DNA of 32,222 bases from a virus (IMGVR_UViG_3300049436_000150:1-32222); one strand, 5' to 3'. Shown: positions 5,901 through 14,088, numbered from the stretch's first letter. Translations and numbers: made by a program. Notes: a model not told the origin generated them from the sequence alone.

Positions 5901-7997
5901 GGCCGCCTTGTGCCGCGCGAAGTCGCCGTGTCCAAAGCGGATCGGCACACCCGTCATGCTCCGCATCTGGTCGTGGATGTCCTGGATGCGAACCTGGGCC
6001 TTGGCCTCGCCGGTCATCGTCTTGGGCTGGGCCAGCTTCCAGCTGGTTCCCAGCGGTGCCCGCGAGCCGGCGCGAGGACTGAACAGCGGGCCCGTCTCTC
6101 GGTCAAGGTCGCTCTCTCGGGTCCGTTCCCGCTGCGCGGCCTCGGCCTCGCGAGCGGCCTCTGAGGCGATGTCCGGCCTGGTCTCGAACAGCGCGCGCTG
6201 GGTGCCCGTGATCGGCTCGGAAGCCTGACCATAAAGCCCGCGACCTCCGCTGAGCGCCGAGGGCTTCTCGAGCGATCCCTTGTCGACGGGAATCGGGGGC
6301 ATGTTCTCGGCCCGAACCTCGGGATACTGGCCGTGGTCGATGATGACCTTGTAGCCGTCGCCGGAAGACTCCACACGGAACTTCGTGCCATCGATCTCGA
6401 ACCGCGTACCGACCGGGAGCGTGTCGGGCTTGACGCTCTGGAACTTGGCGTCAATGCCGGCGTTGGTGCGCGGCAGGTTGTCGTGCAGCGTGGCGAGGAA
6501 CGCGAGCTCGGGATCGATCTGGTTGGCGGTAAAAAACTCCTTGGCCGCTCGGACCCGCTCCGCTCCGTACTTGGACCCGGCGGACTCCAGCGCGTACTGC
6601 TCGTACTTGTCCCAGCCCATCTGGTAGGCGAGGTCTTCGGCGCCGGCACGGGAACCCCGCGCGTTCTTCTCGAGGCGGAACAGGCGTTTGAGCTCGGGGT
6701 GACGCGTCATCATCTCGCGGGCCTCACCCGGATACGTGTCGCCGGGCCAGACAAAGTGGCCGCCCATGGACCCCATCTCGTCGCTGACCTCGATGTCGGG
6801 GGCAATGGACTGGTGCGCCTCGACAAGCCGGGCTTCGATGTCGGCCCGCTTGTACTCACCTTCCCGACTCCGCCGCGGCTTGGCCACCGGCGGCTTCGGC
6901 TTTGGAACATCCGTCGGCGCTGGCGGCTCGGTGGGCTCCGGTACCGGCTCGGCACGGGGAGGCTCGGGCCACTGCGGCGGGAGATCCAGGGACTCACCGG
7001 GCCCGCTTCGGAGTTGGCTCAGCTGGTCCTGCTCGGCGATCAGATCACGGGCAGTCTGCCCCTGATCGCGGCCACGCGCGTAAGCGGCTTGGTAGTCCTG
7101 GGCCGAGCGGAGCCCCGCCTCGCTTCGCACCGCCGCCCGATCAGCCGGAAGGGCCATGCCCGCGCGAACCGCCCGACCCGCGGCCGGGAGGGCCAACCCG
7201 ATGGCGCCTTGCTCGCCCAGACGTCCGGGCGTGAGCGGGACGGCCTCTCCCCCTCCGGCCCGGATGGCCAGTTCTCCGCCGACATCCGCGAGCACGTTGC
7301 CGCCGGCACCGAGCGCCATGTCGGTCACGACGCCGCGTACGCCGGGTGCCGTAGAGAGTCGGCCCAGTGCGCCGGCGACCGGGACCATGCCCAGCGAGGC
7401 GTTGATGGCGCCAGCACCGAGCGCAGCACCCAAGCTTGCTCCGCGATCCTGTGCGGCGCTGATGCCCTGCGTGCCCAGCATGGCCGCTGGCGCCACCGGA
7501 GCGACGGCGCCCGCCGCGATCAGCGGGGCCACACCGCCCACCAGCCTCGAGGTGTACTGCGCGGCGTTGCGAAGTCCGGATGCATCCTCCGGGGCGTAGC
7601 TCGGGGTGAAGCGACCGAGCCCGGGCCCGACGACATCTTCCATGCCGAGCGCCTGCGTCACGCTGCCCGCGGCCGCGGCGAGTCCCTCGCCCACGATCGA
7701 GCGTGTACCTGGTTGGAGTCCGGCCGCCAGAGCCTCGGGCGTGGCGCCCAGGTTCGGACCCATGCGGGCGAGCGTCTCCTGCTCGCGGCGCTCGTTGAAG
7801 AGCGGCGACGGCGCTCCGCCCGGGTGGAGCGTGCCCGCGGGCATCATCGGACCGCCCCACGGGCTCTGCCCCGCGTCGAGCTGCTGCACGATCGTGGGGC
7901 GCGGTGGACCCTGCGGCGCCTGCAGCTGTTGCCGCGCACGTGCCTGCGCCTGCGCGATCCGGATCCGCAGTTGCAAACGGCTATCGATCTGGCTCAT
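2895..7997 (-). CDS. Large polyvalent ejection/internal virion protein (1700 aa) with zincin HExxH metallopeptidase-like domain and C-terminal LPD38 domain
   Basis: Gly/Ala hydrophobic N-terminal region; 'AAHEFGHALHD' (HEFGH at 5820-5834) with a downstream 'REGVAEF'; LPD38-type C-terminus 'DDEWYQELPTWQRERYW...KMPKPFELG...KPSVEVVGNYDAFSRRQIVP'. Confidence 0.85.
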   Translation of the reverse strand: MSQIDSRLQLRIRIAQAQARARQQLQAPQGPPRPTIVQQLDAGQSPWGGPMMPAGTLHPGGAPSPLFNERREQETLARMGPNLGATPEALAAGLQPGTRSIVGEGLAAAAGSVTQALGMEDVVGPGLGRFTPSYAPEDASGLRNAAQYTSRLVGGVAPLIAAGAVAPVAPAAMLGTQGISAAQDRGASLGAALGAGAINASLGMVPVAGALGRLSTAPGVRGVVTDMALGAGGNVLADVGGELAIRAGGGEAVPLTPGRLGEQGAIGLALPAAGRAVRAGMALPADRAAVRSEAGLRSAQDYQAAYARGRDQGQTARDLIAEQDQLSQLRSGPGESLDLPPQWPEPPRAEPVPEPTEPPAPTDVPKPKPPVAKPRRSREGEYKRADIEARLVEAHQSIAPDIEVSDEMGSMGGHFVWPGDTYPGEAREMMTRHPELKRLFRLEKNARGSRAGAEDLAYQMGWDKYEQYALESAGSKYGAERVRAAKEFFTANQIDPELAFLATLHDNLPRTNAGIDAKFQSVKPDTLPVGTRFEIDGTKFRVESSGDGYKVIIDHGQYPEVRAENMPPIPVDKGSLEKPSALSGGRGLYGQASEPITGTQRALFETRPDIASEAAREAEAAQRERTRESDLDRETGPLFSPRAGSRAPLGTSWKLAQPKTMTGEAKAQVRIQDIHDQMRSMTGVPIRFGHGDFARHKAAGWFDPGRYVIRNRRFDELNVAAHEFGHALHDHTIGWNNFGGPAVRRELIDLGRQLYGNRKPNGGYGREGVAEFVARRLLGEDMSKSAPLTQQWFDTQILGKNPKFAEQWGTLADQYRRWDIQGAPGRVAAQIDQRPKGLLGLAKRAVQDVRPTVAIDRLARYLTNDAAPLERAEGRLLAKAGVQPGTLLAKESPSKLRQAVKSSAPGTARHFIENYTTNLAGDRTGGSLVDALRPVRKNLADWESYAVARRAIDLHERGINPGISLEDARSTVQQLETPTFRKALDDVTEYANHVMDYVVEAGGLSREAADAMRIANPIYVPFKRLFTQEDIAGPKGLGTGRGQVNTGTATKRIKGSGRPIVDPVESIAMQTEQMIAIANKARVGRALVDLAAKYPKQAWFAERVPTPKRATTFTLEQLRADLHAAGADLTNADLDQIATVYSNAPAFTGKEPIVSIWRNGEREFWQLDPEIYRVVTEMDKEVLPSWFTAIVGPPKRLVQLGATGLNPAFSLVSNPLRDAMTWNIFRRGERRGLEKLPAVGPMAMQMRGLWQELRKDPGAQRWEALGGKMTTIMGQDRAAAGRRVQEGLATGRGEKAIRTARHPIDSIRDALGAFEGSPRIVEFTRVYERELARTGDKQSAAIEAMIASKEATVDFTRAGTLTQAINQAIPFFNAAVQGTSRMVREGVQHPVRMTARAFVGVTIPSLLIWYMHKDDEWYQELPTWQRERYWNFSFDGGKRIVKMPKPFELGMVFGTLPEMALDSMYRKDPRAVSEAVFDTLVGLMPVDSVYDLVPAVIKPSVEVVGNYDAFSRRQIVPQHEQESRPPAEQFGAYTTETAKRIGEWLNVSPRKVEHVISGYTGGAGVDAARWIESWTGVRKLAAGDKAADLPVVGRLFSRDPLGRGATVERFYEALTDARQRAGSRTATDADLERYQVLHEAAIEIAEFRRGVESGEVGEADARRVINEIASISLTQDLQGRRSVATKFGSVPQAREDRRQP

Positions 7998-8070
7998 GTG
8001 CTACCCCGGTCCCCACGGCATGACTTTACGGCTATCCTTGCTCGATCGTGGGGACGATCGGGGTCGGGGC
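7998..8070. promoter_or_regulatory. Divergent promoter region with back-to-back -10-like boxes (TAAAGT on -, 8023-8028; TATCCT on +, 8033-8038) and inverted GTCCCCACG (8009-8017) / CGTGGGGAC (8047-8055)
   Basis: 73-bp gap between divergent starts; motifs read directly. Confidence 0.6.
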
Positions 8071-8568
8071 ATGTCAGCAACACTCAACGTGTTCATGGCC
8101 GCGGAGCTGCTCCGTGACGGCGAGCCCGTCAGCGAGTTCACGCCCTACGGATCCACACGCAACCCCATCGAGCCCGCCGCCGTCGACGGATACCGCGTCC
8201 GCGCCGTCACCCACCGCCTGGCCCCGGGTCAGTCCATCCAGATCTACGACCGCACCACCCACGGCGCCTTCGTGTTCCGGGCCCTCCGCGCCAAGGGCGG
8301 CGAGGCCGATGTCTCGTGGAAGGTGGACAAGCCCACCAGCTCGAGCAACGACACCGCTCTGGGCACCCACATCAACCACCCCAAGAAGCGGCTGTCCTGC
8401 TTCGCGTGGGAGACCTTCACCACCGACGATGCCCGCGTGCACGCCAACCAGGCGACCTACGCCGGCTCGCCCTTCCCGACCCTCGAGGACGGGCTGATCT
8501 ACGGGATGTGGGTGAAGAACTTCAGCAACACCGTCACCATCGAGGTGACCGAGATCGGCACCGATTGA
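8071..8568 (+). CDS. Hypothetical protein (165 aa, MSATLNVF...), possibly virion-associated
   Basis: High GC3 from ATG 8071. The upstream part of ORF 7606..8568 is a shadow of the LPD38 gene. Confidence 0.8.
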   Translation: MSATLNVFMAAELLRDGEPVSEFTPYGSTRNPIEPAAVDGYRVRAVTHRLAPGQSIQIYDRTTHGAFVFRALRAKGGEADVSWKVDKPTSSSNDTALGTHINHPKKRLSCFAWETFTTDDARVHANQATYAGSPFPTLEDGLIYGMWVKNFSNTVTIEVTEIGTD

Positions 8569-8593
8569 CCCTCTTCAACCTGGGAAACTGACC

Positions 8594-8995
8594 ATGGCCG
8601 GACCCAAAGACGTGCTGGAGCGCAGCAAGGCCGCGATCGCGGTGGACGATGAGCCCATCGGCGACCCGACCTACGACGACGCCTACGACCGCCTGCTCGA
8701 GATCGTCCAGAGGTTCACCGACGAGAACGACGGGCTGGCCTGTCCGCTCGGGCATCTCGAGTCGATCTGGCGGATGGATGCGCGGTTCAAGGGCCGTCCG
8801 TTCATGGAACGCCTGACCGACCTGTACAACTTCGAGGCGATCGAGAGCAACGCCGGCGGGCAGCACTACCGCATCACGCCCAAGGGCGAGAAGATGCGGG
8901 AGACGTACGCCAAGACCAAGGCCCGCGAGAGCGCCAAGAACAAGGCCGCTCAGACCTCGGGCGCGGGCGGCGGCGGACAGACCAGGAACGACTGA
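8594..8995 (+). CDS. Putative winged-helix DNA-binding protein
   Basis: Helical body ending in a wing-like 'AIESNAGGQHYRITPKGEKM' (YxITxKG) motif. Confidence 0.5.
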   Translation: MAGPKDVLERSKAAIAVDDEPIGDPTYDDAYDRLLEIVQRFTDENDGLACPLGHLESIWRMDARFKGRPFMERLTDLYNFEAIESNAGGQHYRITPKGEKMRETYAKTKARESAKNKAAQTSGAGGGGQTRND

Positions 8996-9336
8996 TCGGG
9001 CGGCTTGGGCGAGATGCCGACATGCCACGTTCCGTAGCGCTGGTAGAGCGCGATGTGGAACGTTCGCGTCACGCCGAACACGCCACCCGTGACGCGGAAA
9101 ACCGCCGCCGGCATCCGGATGCCCTCGACGCTGGTCGGCAGGTCGTAGCGACCAAGGGCCTCGAAAGGCACCAGAGGGTCTTGGGCCATGCGGCGCAGCC
9201 CCGCCGGCTTGGCCGCGATCGCCACGATCTTCCGCGCCGATGCGACGGTGACGAGTGAGATGGCGGCCTCGGACTCGGCGGTGTCACGCCCGAGTCGCGA
9301 CGCAAACGCGGTTCGTGCTGGCAGGTCGATGGGCAT
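8950..9336 (-). CDS. Hypothetical protein (128 aa), antisense to the surrounding block
   Basis: High GC3 in this frame and protein-like composition. Fills the gap between the + genes; 46-nt convergent overlap with 8594..8995. Confidence 0.6.
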   Translation of the reverse strand: MPIDLPARTAFASRLGRDTAESEAAISLVTVASARKIVAIAAKPAGLRRMAQDPLVPFEALGRYDLPTSVEGIRMPAAVFRVTGGVFGVTRTFHIALYQRYGTWHVGISPKPPDQSFLVCPPPPAPEV

Positions 9337-9398
9337 GTGGGTATTGTTTCCCGAACCCGTGGGGACTTCACGCCGAGCGCGGCGAGGGGGCGGGGAAC

Positions 9399-10049
9399 AT
9401 GTCGCAGACGTCCCTGATCGGGATCAAGCCTGAGATCGAGGCTGTCGGCACGCGCCAGAACGGCTGGCGTCCGCTGGTGCCGGGCGATCCGAACGCCACC
9501 AGCGGCAAGGGATTCGGGTACGCGCCGAGCACGCCCGCCAACACCGCGCTGCAGGCGTTTACCCGGCTCGGGAACGTGCCCAACCTGGCCCGCCTCACGC
9601 CCACGCTCAGCGGGGCCCTGGCGGCCAACCAGCTCTATTACACGCTGCTCGACCCCACGCACAACGTCAAGCTCAGCTACTACGGCCGGCACTCGAGCGT
9701 GCCCGTGGGCAAGGTGTTCAGCGTGCGGCACTGGCTGCTCCGCGAGCTGGATGCGATTCCGAACATCGTCGAATACCTCGGCGACGGGGCCTTCGACGTG
9801 ACCGGCACGCTGGTGGCCGGCGGACCGGCGGTGAGCACCGAGGCCTCGGTGCTGCTGCCCAGCGATCTGCGGTGGGCCACGCCCGTGGTGGCCAACGACA
9901 AGACGCCCGACCCGGGAGTCCGCATCGACTTCGACCAGACCGACGGCAAGCCGGTGGTGTGGATCGATGCGCTCGGGTACGCGGTGCTGGTGGCGCAGTT
10001 CGTCAACACCGACACCGAGGGGTGCGGTGCGATGGTCGCGCAGTTCTGA
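9399..10049 (+). CDS. Hypothetical protein (216 aa, MSQTSLIGIK...)
   Basis: ATG 9399 after a G-rich RBS; high GC3; preceded by TATTGT (9342-9347) and CGTGGGGAC (9358-9366). Confidence 0.8.
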   Translation: MSQTSLIGIKPEIEAVGTRQNGWRPLVPGDPNATSGKGFGYAPSTPANTALQAFTRLGNVPNLARLTPTLSGALAANQLYYTLLDPTHNVKLSYYGRHSSVPVGKVFSVRHWLLRELDAIPNIVEYLGDGAFDVTGTLVAGGPAVSTEASVLLPSDLRWATPVVANDKTPDPGVRIDFDQTDGKPVVWIDALGYAVLVAQFVNTDTEGCGAMVAQF

Positions 10050-10123
10050 GCCACGCCTCCCCTCCACCCCATTGGTAACCCGCGGTGCATGTTGCACCGG
10101 ATTTGGAAACCCCGGAGTCCCCC

Positions 10124-10729
10124 ATGAAAACCCGCACGATGCTGCTCGCCGCGATTGCCTTGTGTGCATCCATGATCGGTGCTCTCCCTGCCCGTGCCGA
10201 CGGGTACGCCGAGTTCTTCATCAACCCCGCCGGACAGGTCACGGGGAGCATCAACGGCTCGCCGCTCACCCTGCCCACCAGCTTCGCCATCGTCATGGGC
10301 TCGTTCGACGATCCCGAACATCCCGGCCAGACGCTGTTCAGCATGTACAGCTGCACGGCCACGCCCAACTCGTACTCCGACCTCTGGGTCGGCGGACGGG
10401 TGCTCACCACCGACTTCCACGGGTTCAGCGGCCTGGTCGGCTACTTCAGCACGATCAGCTACCCCGGCCCGGTCCCGCCCGAGCCCGTGCTCATGCGGCT
10501 GGTGATCGACGGCCACCCGATGATCGACTTCACGGGCGAGCCGGTGCGGGTGGATGTGGTGGGCGAGGACACGCGGGTGCGGCTCGGGCGGCCCCCGCCC
10601 CTGAGCTTCGACCTGTACACGTTTCTCGACGCTTGGTTTTCTGGTGCGTTGGAGGCGGACATCAACGCGGACGGCGTGCTGAGTGTGCAGGACCTCTTCG
10701 ACTTCCTGGCCGGCTGGTTCGGCCCCTGA
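10124..10729 (+). CDS. Secreted protein with C-terminal GC-type dockerin-like anchor (201 aa)
   Basis: Sec signal peptide MKTRTMLLAAIALCASMIGALPARA-D; C-terminus 'FDLYTFLDAWFSG..ADINADGVLSVQDLFDFLAGWFG' matches the Phycisphaerales GC-type dockerin repeat as I recall it. Confidence 0.8.
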   Translation: MKTRTMLLAAIALCASMIGALPARADGYAEFFINPAGQVTGSINGSPLTLPTSFAIVMGSFDDPEHPGQTLFSMYSCTATPNSYSDLWVGGRVLTTDFHGFSGLVGYFSTISYPGPVPPEPVLMRLVIDGHPMIDFTGEPVRVDVVGEDTRVRLGRPPPLSFDLYTFLDAWFSGALEADINADGVLSVQDLFDFLAGWFGP

Positions 10730-10734
10730 ACGAC

Positions 10735-10803
10735 TGCGGGCGCGTGTTGGATGCGGTGGGGGCTCATTACCCTCGCCACCCGGTTCGACTCCGGGGCCCG
10801 CTA
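10735..10803 (+). tRNA. Non-canonical tRNA-Met/fMet-like (anticodon CAU) or tRNA-like RNA; no encoded CCA
   Basis: Acceptor GCGGGC/GCCCGC with a terminal U-U mismatch and discriminator A; mini D-arm GCGU-GUUGG-AUGC; 8-bp anticodon stem ending GGG/CCC with loop CUCAUUA; canonical T-arm CCCGG-UUCGACU-CCGGG. Confidence 0.75.
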
Positions 10804-10806
10804 TTC

Positions 10807-11682
10807 ATGATCCGCTGCCTCATCGAGACCGAGAAGAAGGATTTCCGCGACCCGCTCTTTGCCGGTCCGCGGCGGGCGGCGTACGCGCACCTGTCGTGCT
10901 GGTATCCCTACCGCGGCGATCCCATCGCGCCCCTGGCCGAGCAGATCCCCGGGGTGTACGACCACCTCAAGGGCACGCCCCCGGACCTGCGGGCCTTGTA
11001 CCTGCCGTGGTTCGCCGAGTATGAGACCGCGGCCAAGGGCAACCCGCCGACGCCGGCACCGGACTGGACTAAGAAGCTCGACGACGCGATCCCACGCCGT
11101 CAGGCCGAGTACATCGCCCGCGAGCTGGCGGTGTTCGGGCTCATCCCAATCCTGTTCGACTTCGAGAACAACCTGATGGATGTCGGAGGTCGTATCAGGC
11201 CGCAGGCCGACCGCACGTCCTACCTGCGGCGGGCGTCGGCCCCGCTGGCCAAGGTGTTCGGCGAGCGGTCGTGCACGGGCTTCGTGCGGATCAAGAGCGA
11301 CGCCCGCGTGCTCGACGGCAACGGGGTGCCGGTGCAATCGGGCACGATCGACAACACCAGCGCCGTGCCGTCGATGAGCCGGTCGCGTGCGGAGTGGGGC
11401 CGACACCGACGCGATGTCCGCGCTTGCCGAGCGCCCGCGTGCACGCACCTGCCGCCGATCTGGACGGACAGCGGCAAAGTCATCCAGGACCCCGACGAGA
11501 TGCTCTCGCAGCTCTATGGGGCCATCCTGTTGGATTCGGCCGCCGGCGTGCGGACGTTCATCCTGGCCATGTACATGATCGAACGCAAGGGCCCGAGCGG
11601 GCGTGATCTCTGGGCCGAGGCGATGAAGACCGTGGACCGGGCGATCGCGGACGCCGAGGCGGCGATCGGGGAGGTGGGCTGA
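10807..11682 (+). CDS. Hypothetical protein (291 aa), alpha/beta; possibly glycoside-hydrolase-like barrel (weak)
   Basis: ATG 10807 in the frame of ORF 9967..11682 with high GC3. 'PILFDFEN' resembles a DxE catalytic strand. Confidence 0.7.
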   Translation: MIRCLIETEKKDFRDPLFAGPRRAAYAHLSCWYPYRGDPIAPLAEQIPGVYDHLKGTPPDLRALYLPWFAEYETAAKGNPPTPAPDWTKKLDDAIPRRQAEYIARELAVFGLIPILFDFENNLMDVGGRIRPQADRTSYLRRASAPLAKVFGERSCTGFVRIKSDARVLDGNGVPVQSGTIDNTSAVPSMSRSRAEWGRHRRDVRACRAPACTHLPPIWTDSGKVIQDPDEMLSQLYGAILLDSAAGVRTFILAMYMIERKGPSGRDLWAEAMKTVDRAIADAEAAIGEVG

Positions 11683-14088
11683 ATGAGCGTTGTCGCAACC
11701 ATCCTCGCGCTGCAGGGCGTGCTCGGGGCGTCCGTCAACCTCTCGGTGCTCCGGGCCTATCAGGGCTACGACGCCGGCACCAACATCTTCGACGACAAGC
11801 TCGGGGCTAGCAACGGCACGTGGGTCGGCTCGCCCTCCCTTCAGCAGACGCCCGGGTTCGGCGAGAACGAGACCCCTTCGTACCACGTCGACTTCGGGAC
11901 CAGCGGCAAGTACGGCGACCTGGGGGCCAGCGGCGCGGTCAAGGCGGCCATCGGCGGCAACGGGTTGACCGTGATCGTCGCGGTCCGGCACTCGGCCGTG
12001 ACCGACAACGACTACGTGCTCTCGTCGTTCAGTGGCTCAGGCACCAACGGCTTCTCGATCTGCTTCAACCAGACGGCCGGGGGGGCGAACAACGCCAACA
12101 ACGTGGCCGTGCGGATCGGCTCGTGGGACAACAGCGCCTATTACGCGGGCGCGTACGTCGATCCCGGATCGTCCACCTCGATCCAGCACGACGACGACGT
12201 GCACATCTGGGCCTTCTACATCAACCGCAACGGAGCCGGCACGCCGATCATCAAGATCTGGTGCGACGGGATGCCCAAGCCGGTCACCACCTCGACCGCC
12301 GGTTCCGTTCCCTCGTTCTCAACCGGCACCGACAAGATGGTGTGGGGATGCCTCTGCTTCAACACCACCATCGACTCGACGGCCTCCCGCGCTTTCGCAG
12401 GGAAGATGGCCCATCTGTACATGATCGAGGGCGAGCCGACGCAGGTGCAGCTCCGCGACGTCTGCCGCGCGATGTACTACACGGTCCGCGGCATTCCCGG
12501 CGTGATCCAGCACGGCAAGCCCTCAACCACCACCGCCATCAAGACCATCGCTGGATCCGTCGCCGCTGGTTATGGCGACCCAGTCCGCAAACTGCTCGAT
12601 CTCTCCCCCTCCGCGAATCACCCGATCAACGCCAACGCGACCACCAACCGGCACCCGACGCTGGAGAACTTCGACGGTATTCCGGTGCTGTGCTTCGACA
12701 ACTTCTTCGCGAACTACACCCAGTGGAGCGCCTCCAGCTACTACAAGCAGCAGACGCTCGACATGGGCACGATCACGGGCACAGGTGCGAATGGCGACGC
12801 GGTGAACTCCGCCGCGCCCGCGAAGGTGCTCCAGCAGTACCACATGGGCGTGCTCTTCGCGTGCCGGCCACAGTGCAACGCGGCCCGGGCCCGGAACGCC
12901 TATCTCTTCGCGGGTTACGACTCGGGCGGGACAAACTACGCGGCCCTCGCACTCAACGGCGACGAATGCACGAACGCCCGAGCCGGAAGCGTCAAGTTCG
13001 CCGCGAATCTCCCCAAGGCCCGCGTCGGTCCAGGCCTATGCGTGATGGGGTGGTCCACCGGCCAGACCGGCGACCCCAACTCGGCATCCGACGTGCTGAT
13101 GGTGACCAACCGCTGGCAGTCGGCCGCGGCCGGCGCGTGGAACAGCGGAACGGTGGCCTCGGCCATCACGAAGTGGTGGATCGGTGGAAAGCCCGACAGC
13201 GGAACTGCTGGCCAGGGCAACGACCACTATGCCGGATACGTCGATGAATGGATCGTGACCAAGTGCGGATTTACGCCGGCCGAGGCGACGGCCTTCGTCA
13301 ACTCCGCCTTCGCTTCCGCCGGAGAGATGGTCACGCCCGCCAACCACGTGCTCGTCGTCGGGGACTCGATCGCGTCGGGTACGTACAGCGCCAAGTGCCA
13401 GACCATGCTCGGCATCGGCGGGATCCCCGCGGCCGCGAGGCGCAACACGTCCTTCTGCAACGCCTCGATCGATTCGATGCGGGTCGACGACACCGTGGCC
13501 CCCTACGACCCCGGCGTCTCGATGGTGAACCGCGGGTCGCTCTTCTCTGACCTCTCCGGAACGTACACGCCGCCCGAGGGCGGCACCGCCTACAAGTGGA
13601 CGGACAACCGCGCCGCGAAGAACATCGCCGCCGTCGAGCTGGTCGTGAACGACGCGAACGACGGCGTCACACAGCCGGTGTGGGCAGGGTTGATCTACAC
13701 CGCCGGGGCCCAGAGCTCATCCAACGGCATCAATAACCCCGGCCAGATCGGGCTCATCGACACGCTCAAGCTGCTCGGCTGTGCCGGGAACATCTACTGG
13801 AACGAGGAAACCGACAACTCCGGAGGGCCGGGCGCGACGCCGAGGAATCTCGCTCTCCGGGCGCTGGTGGGATCGCAGATCAGGAAGCTGGTGATCCTGA
13901 CGCCGCTCGATCCGACCCTTGGCTACGAGGCCGACAACCTGCACCCGCTCCCGGCGAGCCAGATGATCTGGGGTAACGACTGGTGGAGGCAGGCGCTGCA
14001 GGGAGCCATCGGAGGGTCATCGGACAGTGATGCCGGAGGGCGAGGGCGGCGCACGGGCCGCACGAACAGGACGCAGAGGATCGCATGA
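11683..14088 (+). CDS. LamG/ConA-like lectin domains plus SGNH/GDSL esterase; candidate receptor-binding or tail-spike protein (801 aa)
   Basis: LamG-like 'DDDVHIWAFY...IWCDG...FAGKMAHL' and 'WIGG...YAGYVDEWIV'; SGNH blocks 'VVGDSI', 'VVND', 'DNLHP'; Arg-rich C-terminal tail. Confidence 0.7.
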   Translation: MSVVATILALQGVLGASVNLSVLRAYQGYDAGTNIFDDKLGASNGTWVGSPSLQQTPGFGENETPSYHVDFGTSGKYGDLGASGAVKAAIGGNGLTVIVAVRHSAVTDNDYVLSSFSGSGTNGFSICFNQTAGGANNANNVAVRIGSWDNSAYYAGAYVDPGSSTSIQHDDDVHIWAFYINRNGAGTPIIKIWCDGMPKPVTTSTAGSVPSFSTGTDKMVWGCLCFNTTIDSTASRAFAGKMAHLYMIEGEPTQVQLRDVCRAMYYTVRGIPGVIQHGKPSTTTAIKTIAGSVAAGYGDPVRKLLDLSPSANHPINANATTNRHPTLENFDGIPVLCFDNFFANYTQWSASSYYKQQTLDMGTITGTGANGDAVNSAAPAKVLQQYHMGVLFACRPQCNAARARNAYLFAGYDSGGTNYAALALNGDECTNARAGSVKFAANLPKARVGPGLCVMGWSTGQTGDPNSASDVLMVTNRWQSAAAGAWNSGTVASAITKWWIGGKPDSGTAGQGNDHYAGYVDEWIVTKCGFTPAEATAFVNSAFASAGEMVTPANHVLVVGDSIASGTYSAKCQTMLGIGGIPAAARRNTSFCNASIDSMRVDDTVAPYDPGVSMVNRGSLFSDLSGTYTPPEGGTAYKWTDNRAAKNIAAVELVVNDANDGVTQPVWAGLIYTAGAQSSSNGINNPGQIGLIDTLKLLGCAGNIYWNEETDNSGGPGATPRNLALRALVGSQIRKLVILTPLDPTLGYEADNLHPLPASQMIWGNDWWRQALQGAIGGSSDSDAGGRGRRTGRTNRTQRIA

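Follow-up and report, generated by a model that had tools for sequence, protein, structure and literature searches.

The window, by which we mean the whole stretch of DNA analysed (IMGVR_UViG_3300049436_000150, 32,222 bases), is a whole virus record. Its integrase together with the terminase, portal, and capsid genes identifies it as a temperate tailed phage (Table 1). A tRNA gene fills nearly the whole 77-nt gap between two protein-coding genes of this phage. The stop codon of the upstream gene (10727-10729) is situated 5 nt before the tRNA gene, and its product carries a GC-type dockerin-like motif that scores 27.8 bits with NF041540, below the cut-off of 29. This motif is common to many other contigs in the same metagenomes. 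On the other side, as stated in the first-pass annotation, the tRNA ends 3 nt before the start codon of the next gene and a clear Shine-Dalgarno motif is lacking ahead of this ATG, the only upstream G-rich run being located inside the T and acceptor stems. Several other genes of the phage are without a clear Shine-Dalgarno motif as well.

Table 1. Coordinates of the tRNA gene, its parts, and further features of the window
Feature	Position	Strand	Remarks
Compact initiator-type tRNA(CAU) gene, 69 nt, CCA not encoded	10735-10803	+	Sequence, ARAGORN, folding, class membership
Acceptor stem 5′ strand, U1 unpaired, G2, C3, G4	10735-10741	+	Pairs with 10796-10802; formyltransferase elements
D arm, 4-bp stem (one G-U; 10742-10745/10751-10754), 5-nt loop ending with GG (10749-10750)	10742-10754	+	
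Extended anticodon arm, 8-bp stem (10755-10762/10770-10777)	10755-10777	+	
1-nt variable region (10778) and canonical T arm (10779-10795; 5 bp, loop UUCGACU)	10778-10795	+	
Acceptor stem 3′ strand (10796-10802), discriminator A73 (10803), 3-nt trailer TTC	10796-10806	+	
Upstream gene, 201 aa	10124-10729	+	Signal-peptide-like N-terminus, GC-type dockerin-like C-terminus
Downstream gene, 291 aa	10807-11682	+	Small unnamed family; ATG 3 nt after A73
Tyrosine integrase	1-1506	minus	
Large polyvalent protein with LPD38 domain, 1700 aa	2895-7997	minus	Opposite to structural genes
Rightward run: terminase, portal, major capsid protein	14525, 16795, 20839	plus	

The family of the downstream gene comprises 10 matches including the gene itself, and its profile matched none of 401 Phycisphaerae genomes. 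A low-confidence structure model gives a TIM-barrel/glycoside-hydrolase-like product (feature score 0.89), which may serve as a lead only. In six of the ten matches (self included) the alignment begins within query residues 1-5, and of six homologs aligned, five start with Met at the position of ATG 10807; hence this ATG is a genuine start. No stop codon interrupts the reading frame upstream as far as 9967, across the entire tRNA, but a longer protein from the frame 9967-11682 was rejected, since the homologs begin at Met 10807.

The phage DNA is present in bioreactor metagenomes. Contigs from two other runs (X5, covering 10664-10814, and X6, covering 10514-10793 and 10773-11006) show no differences across the tRNA gene, which rules out an assembly error. 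Among RNA runs none was found to carry the phage DNA; a single run labeled “RNA?”, probably DNA, had no reads over the tRNA. Neither a sigma-70 promoter nor a terminator was matched in the region 7800-12000. Searches for close DNA homologs gave no match of an exact 24-nt pattern in viral contigs and short T-arm matches only in a blastn search against 50,697 phage records. In viral contigs, related phages sought via protein (gene 10807, terminase, and an alignment of two homologs) gave no confirmed relative, and except for the integrase none of the window proteins matched the fetched loci.

Fold of the phage tRNA and comparison to host initiator genes

With -39.9 kcal/mol and a z score of -2.83, the cloverleaf represents both the minimum free energy and the centroid structure and accounts for 90% of the ensemble; only 1 of 200 shuffled sequences was as stable. 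The D stem begins directly after position 7, without an 8-9 connector, and its loop GG is located 12 nt before C32. The anticodon stem contains two wobble pairs and ends with three G-C pairs that close the 7-nt loop CUCAUUA (10763-10769), in which CAU occupies 10765-10767 and U37 is found at 10768; reading the loop as UCA was rejected, since the stem places CAU at the center. At the acceptor end, the mismatch U1xU72, G2-C71, C3-G70, G4-C69, and A73 constitute the bacterial initiator set. An alternative register with a 1-nt connector, a 5-bp D stem, and a 7-bp anticodon stem is 5.8 kcal/mol worse, and the preferred D-arm register agrees with L111 and L101, the relatives described below, and with the class as a whole. 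The fold is kept when the tRNA is folded in its mRNA context.

Counted from the secondary structure, the D/anticodon branch comprises 4+8 = 12 layers. Of the canonical cloverleaf, the 7-bp acceptor and 5-bp T stems, the T-loop UUC, and the D-loop GG are present, whereas the 2-nt connector with U8, A14, the 5-bp anticodon stem, and the 4-5-nt variable loop are absent. The formylation pair R11:Y24 is absent too; its equivalent layer is G-C, the purine belonging to the Y24 strand. ARAGORN reports a tRNA-Met at 10735-10803. Rfam gave no match at E<=1 for the whole window; with 251 nt, RF00005 was absent at E<=10, the tRNA gene being below its gathering threshold of 29 bits, and the best match of the clan was tRNA-Sec with 15.4 bits (threshold 47). 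Thus, the structural statements of the first-pass annotation (a 69-nt initiator-like cloverleaf with its stems, loop, linker, and variable region) are all correct, and the gene is not scored as an ordinary tRNA-Met, the alternative fold being non-canonical as well.

For comparison, 31 initiator genes of Phycisphaerales genomes, the likely host group, were parsed; they are the best-scoring loci and not a random draw. All 31 are 73-74 nt long and canonical, with U1:U72 and A37, and CCA is encoded in none of them (one gene ends at a contig end). Their 3′ flank is mostly TT, as in the trailer of the phage tRNA, and their predicted fold energy is about -28 to -32 kcal/mol. The phage tRNA shares with them CAU, the three G-C pairs 29-31/39-41, the U:U 1:72 mismatch, G2-C71, C3-G70, G4-C69, A73, the 7/5 acceptor-T domain, the D-loop GG 12 nt before C32, and the missing CCA. 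It differs in its length of 69 nt, in the lack of the U8/9 connector, A14, and A11-U24, and in its 5-nt D loop, its anticodon stem of 8 instead of 5 bp, its 1-nt variable region, and U37 instead of A37. Due to their presence in all 31 host genes, the U:U mismatch and the missing CCA follow the host; templating of CCA is known to depend on lineage (PMC5143459). Among the features listed beforehand, the compact D/anticodon layout stands as a departure from the canonical tRNA, the lack of CCA does not, and the mismatched 1:72 pair is real but normal for the likely host group.

U37 is unusual in cells and common in viral initiator tRNAs. A U37 pattern had no match in 401 Planctomycetota genomes (three carry C or G), and one Phycisphaerales genome outside this pattern contains a U37 copy. 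The latter (L172:219-291, genome G035, a cellular assembly) is an initiator-type tRNA of canonical length with an altered T loop. In viruses the U37 search gave 52 loci; parsing of 45 of these resulted in 37 distinct genes, among which 33 have the canonical length. Since the viral U37 genes are mostly of canonical length and 46 of the 52 compact genes described below keep A37, U37 and the compact body are separate traits.

A class of compact initiator-type tRNA genes

Relatives were collected with gapped search patterns that required an initiator-type acceptor and anticodon arm and a short 5′ half. These patterns also prescribe the acceptor sequence GCGGG, CAU, the three G-C pairs, and a portion of the T arm, so that finding these elements conserved throughout the class carries no weight as evidence. 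The patterns yielded 19 and 57 viral, 46 GTDB, and 40 metagenome loci, and another scan 9 more. From 172 sources, window included, 135 genes were parsed, of which 113 are distinct. By rule, 61 were dropped for overlapping reasons: N (8), fewer than 6 acceptor pairs (20), canonical length (29), insufficient length (1), and a host-type 3′ half (31). The 52 distinct compact initiator-type genes retained comprise 28 viral, 17 metagenomic, and 6 GTDB genes in addition to the phage gene. Genomic context was examined for a few GTDB matches, and two class members are located in prophage-like regions of Phycisphaerales genomes.

The connector comprises 0, 1, and 2 nt in 22, 26, and 4 of the 52 genes, respectively. 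D-stem pairs and anticodon-helix layers add up to exactly 12 in 32 genes, compared to 8.6±2.8 (maximum 17) in 300 shuffles with lengths and composition kept; under this scoring the sum deviates from 12 in the remaining 20. The 47 genes long enough for a test with the register fixed from C32 form 162 of 188 D-stem pairs, and their 3′ strand occurs as 35 different 4-mers; after permutation of strands between genes, 102.0±5.1 pairs (maximum 119 in 2000) are obtained. For the anticodon extension of the same genes, 200 of 235 pairs are formed, compared to 146.7±5.2 (maximum 162 in 400). Shifted neighboring registers give 83 and 125 pairs. The excess pairing survives single-linkage clustering at 85, 80, and 75% identity, with 76 of 88 D pairs in the 22 clusters of the latter (46.7±3.6 permuted); the median pairwise identity in the class is 0.63. 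Homologs with compensatory changes therefore exist, and the earlier claim of selection rather than decay is borne out by the D/anticodon covariation and the conserved 12-layer length, which argue for selection on tRNA shape. Six compact matches were dropped only for their host-type 3′ half; among these, 12 layers were observed once, and the D score is 1.93 vs. 3.35.

Among the features independent of the search patterns, an unpaired 1:72 position occurs in 43, A73 in 45, and an encoded CCA in 27 of the 52 genes, and in 17 another tRNA gene is situated within 380 nt. The A38/C39 site is kept in all 52. UUCGACU is the commonest T loop (29 of 52), which is partly imposed by the patterns. As in the host tRNA, the D-loop GG is located 12 nt from C32 in most members. 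The strict form without connector and with four D pairs is common to ten genes, the 5-nt loop being restricted to the phage gene. In the layer equivalent to R11:Y24, A, C, and G occur in 19, 15, and 13 of 47 members, respectively. Bulges or mismatches are frequent in the upper part of the anticodon helix; in an alignment of 11 sequences (A2), column 21 is unpaired in 7 and column 22 in 9. As these 11 sequences were picked by eye for their fold, pair counts from this alignment were replaced by the rule-based tests.

The top-scoring relative, L111 (52/69), is found in a Phycisphaeraceae MAG next to a phage-type repressor and a methyltransferase gene. Its acceptor stem is identical to that of the phage tRNA, the D-stem G-U is replaced by G-C, and two T-stem pairs are compensatory, whereas the anticodon extension is weaker with 6 of 8 positions paired. 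L101 of a Phycisphaerales MAG, with three compensatory D-stem changes, is part of a Mu-like prophage in which the terminase, portal, and capsid genes follow downstream, and its location resembles that of the phage tRNA. Both genomes also contain a canonical initiator gene. GC-type dockerin-like motifs are linked to Phycisphaerae. Considering this motif in the product of gene 10124-10729, the closest tRNA relatives, and the common U1:U72 acceptor end, the host of the phage is probably a Phycisphaerales planctomycete.

A covariance model (R1) matched 150 of 151 Phycisphaerales genomes, including the unpublished genome G107, which enters this tally only, with 33 candidates scored per genome; among the best 150 of 514 matches, only the training sequence L101 is compact. 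In an insensitive blastn search with four compact queries, the 18 GenBank loci of named phages contained no compact tRNA (17 of canonical length, 1 unparsed). ARAGORN missed 16 of the 52 class genes, among them both L111 and L101, and among 20 loci submitted to Rfam, 4 were reported by RF00005 at or above its threshold, with a hidden clan match possible for two more. Compact tRNA genes are thus under-annotated by both.

Several further tRNA forms were observed alongside the class. A small group of 63-67 nt (L025/L080, L078, L207, L232, and L249 of viral or metagenome contigs; L275:1480-1544 and L276:365-428 of Phycisphaerae genomes) consists of tRNA(CAU) with three G-C pairs, an anticodon helix of about 8-9 layers, a D arm in the form of a short loop with GG, and, in five of seven, U37; with its paired G1-C72 it combines an elongator-type 1:72 position with an initiator-type anticodon stem. 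L272:1486-1556 of the Planctomycetota genome G436, outside the 52, is a 12-layer compact tRNA(CAU) with a 2-nt connector, a 5-bp D stem, a 3-nt loop, a 7-layer anticodon helix, G37, and an encoded CCA. The acceptor filter removed the compact tRNA(CAU) of the viral contigs L057 and L082, whose acceptor is apparently one pair short. Exact 3′ halves of the host tRNA-fMet with a foreign 5′ half were found at the GTDB loci L093, L095, L097, L099, L100, L102, L103, L106, L108, L115, L118, L120, L121, and L127; these 14 fragments fit integration sites, and several retain a partial acceptor stem, for which the patterns select.

Proposed function and rival explanations

The phage gene is a real, selected, and structurally new variant of an initiator tRNA and part of an apparently undescribed viral class. 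The pattern-independent features (unpaired 1:72, A73, CCA, and nearby tRNA genes) point to initiator function, and the phage tRNA probably serves as a working initiator. From the DNA sequence we infer the following steps. The tRNA would be transcribed with the rightward operon leading into the terminase and capsid genes and be freed by RNase P and RNase Z-type processing; addition of CCA by the host enzyme is expected, since the host's own initiator tRNA is CCA-less as well. Canonical tRNAs contain a seven-layer core and a 5-bp anticodon stem (PMC4394434), and thus measure 12 layers from elbow to anticodon. In the phage tRNA, neither U8-A14 and 15-48 nor the base triples would form; Watson-Crick pairs would be found instead, between positions 8-11 and 20-23 and between positions 24-26 and 44-46. 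With the resulting 4+8 simple pairs and the D stem stacked on the anticodon stem, the canonical length would be preserved, and the D-loop GG could still meet the T loop. A connector-less tRNA-Pyl of M. alvus is functional in translation (PMC7609411).

MetRS would charge the tRNA via CAU, which is described as sufficient, and the formyltransferase would accept it via U1xU72, G2-C71, C3-G70, G4-C69, and A73; the formylation elements are placed in the acceptor stem, with R11:Y24 also named (PMC9976931). The three G-C pairs would admit the tRNA to the P site. An A37 base triple is thought to be important for initiator selection (PMC2528185), so U37 may lower the efficiency. The remodeled D/variable region and U37 would remove contacts of tRNA-cleaving toxins or defense nucleases, so that initiation continues during infection. 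Phage tRNA variants that withstand host tRNases are described, and the contacts made by AriB include the D loop as well as further regions of the tRNA body (PMC12409363). The benefit of the layout is likely an escape from tRNA-directed defenses, in line with the nuclease-resistant substitute considered in the first-pass annotation; phage tRNA variants can achieve such escape, and these defenses can depend on D-loop and body contacts. The enteric VapC cuts tRNA-fMet between A38 and C39 (PMC4105405), and phages are described as generally avoiding to encode tRNA-fMet where VapC targets it (PMC10264068); due to the conserved A38/C39, the compact body alone does not remove this known site. For the entire chain, from a spare initiator tRNA with a 4+8 stacked helix to poor recognition by host tRNA nucleases and anti-defense as its reason, we estimate a probability of roughly 45%.

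A spare initiator tRNA might also have acquired its compact core by drift under relaxed selection with compensation, boosting the supply without any special protection. Shape and length are conserved while sequence and register vary, the canonical loop with A37 is mostly kept, and overexpression of a tRNA alone can defeat a tRNase (PMC11555353), all of which would suit drift. This explanation is nevertheless unlikely given that the sources of the layout are viral contigs, metagenome contigs, and, for the loci with genomic context examined, prophage-like regions, and that none of the 31 parsed Phycisphaerales housekeeping genes is compact; the recurrent U37 of canonical-length viral genes moreover suggests a pressure on the loop. 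The conserved unpaired 1:72, A73, CCA, and 12 layers, all of which matter for formylation or the ribosome, likewise render it distinctly unlikely that the tRNA is a non-translating mimic, i.e., a decoy titrating a tRNA-fMet-directed nuclease, acetyltransferase toxin, or sensor. A decoy would agree with the very stable fold in comparison to host initiator genes, the lost canonical core, and U37, and some irregular phage or bacterial tRNAs, certain allo-tRNAs included, are described as not used in translation (PMC5389517).

The first-pass annotation had also considered an RNase P/Z punctuation signal. As a cis-acting switch, the folded tRNA would block ribosome loading at ATG 10807 until its excision leaves an mRNA with a 3-nt leader, and the filled intergenic gap, the genuine start, the persistence of the fold in the mRNA, and the buried G-rich run are in agreement with this. 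As a function of the class, punctuation is unsupported: a start codon within 10 nt downstream was found for 3 of 38 members scorable by an ORF of at least 70 aa within 400 nt (14 of the 52 are unscorable), namely the phage gene and two with putative GTG starts, and the distances in the two Phycisphaerales relatives are 21 and 97 nt. Since processing would need neither CAU nor the three G-C pairs, and other phage genes also do without a clear Shine-Dalgarno motif, we regard a switch as very unlikely; processing of the tRNA may affect gene 10807 in this phage, at most in a local side role. A decaying pseudogene or attachment-site remnant of the host tRNA-fMet is highly improbable and largely refuted by the covariation. 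Such fragments are common (PMC9897764), the phage possesses an integrase, its tRNA lacks an Rfam tRNA match, and 31 of the 113 parsed matches carry a host-type 3′ half. However, all stems pair, the tRNA is situated inside an operon about 9 kb from the integrase, its longest exact match to the 31 initiator genes of the likely host group is 8 nt with an identity of at most 55%, and the compact matches with host-type 3′ halves lack the 12-layer peak. An attachment-site fragment was rejected on the basis of this short match and the distance from the integrase.

Relation to known tRNAs and meaning

One of the closest known parallels is tRNA-Pyl of M. barkeri, D. hafniense, and M. alvus, which is functional on ordinary ribosomes and shares a D loop of 4-5 nt, a 0-1-nt connector, a lengthened anticodon stem (with a possible bulge), a short variable region, and the 7/5 acceptor domain (PMC7609411). 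It differs by a 6-bp anticodon stem, CUA, G73, the paired G1-C72, a variable arm of 3 nt, and a dedicated synthetase, and tRNA-Pyl of M. barkeri and D. hafniense is described without G18G19 and TPsiC (PMC7609411), whereas the phage tRNA keeps GG and UUC and would use the host MetRS. With CUA, G73, G1-C72, and the 6-bp anticodon stem all absent, an assignment as tRNA-Pyl was rejected. In mt-tRNA-Ser(UCN), a longer anticodon stem is likewise offset by shorter connectors and a shorter D loop, with the L shape, G18G19, and TPsiC kept; the phage layout differs from the mitochondrial tRNAs by its occurrence in phages of bacteria, in an initiator tRNA, and by 7-8 layers instead of 6 bp. Synthetic 7-10-bp versions, attributed to Bourdeau et al. 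1998, reportedly suppress amber codons in E. coli. The compensation assumed for the phage tRNA corresponds to that put forward for atypical mitochondrial tRNAs (Steinberg and Cedergren 1994, Steinberg et al. 1997, as cited in PMC4394434).

Nuclease-evading phage tRNAs, e.g., tRNA-Lys/Thr/Asn of T5 against PARIS (PMC12409363), mycobacteriophage tRNAs (PMC10264068), and tRNA-Tyr against retron Eco7 (PMC11555353), are phage-borne versions of host tRNAs altered next to the anticodon, as is the present tRNA with U37. As described there, they are elongator tRNAs with point changes near the cleavage site or act by overexpression, whereas the phage tRNA is an initiator tRNA with a rebuilt core. Allo-tRNAs and 8/4 tRNAs (Mukai et al., PMC5389517) similarly are non-canonical cloverleaves of metagenomes and phages missed by standard annotation, but they alter the acceptor/T branch (8/4, 9/3) and possess long variable arms, in contrast to the 7/5 branch and the altered D/anticodon branch of the phage tRNA. 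Due to this 7/5 branch, the 1-nt variable region, and the low tRNA-Sec score, an allo-tRNA or tRNA-Sec-like assignment was rejected. A literature search over mostly openly accessible full texts gave no description of compact phage initiator tRNAs. In a review of non-canonical tRNAs (PMC7609411) the words “phage” and “initiator” are absent, as are “initiator” and “fMet” in the main text of Mukai et al. (PMC5389517), and the accessible part of the DARNA preprint (10.64898/2026.02.22.705581) contains nothing on tRNA-fMet.

So far, the 12-layer D/anticodon layout has been tied to mitochondria and tRNA-Pyl. A far-reaching proposal, which we consider tentative and rather doubtful, would be an undescribed class of initiator tRNAs in phages of several bacterial groups that replaces the core by a 12-layer helix, works on bacterial ribosomes, and escapes nucleases reading the tRNA body, with excision at this locus activating the next gene as a near-leaderless mRNA. 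If the genes work, natural tRNAs without the U8-A14/15-48 core would run on bacterial ribosomes, and this in initiation, which is checked more tightly than any other role. The long-standing rule of 12-layer compensation in mitochondrial tRNAs would then become testable on natural, diverse examples from a bacterial system. Rebuilding of the tRNA body would represent a second route of phage counter-defense in comparison to changes of single loop bases, and the compact genes may provide scaffolds for nuclease-resistant or orthogonal initiator tRNAs.
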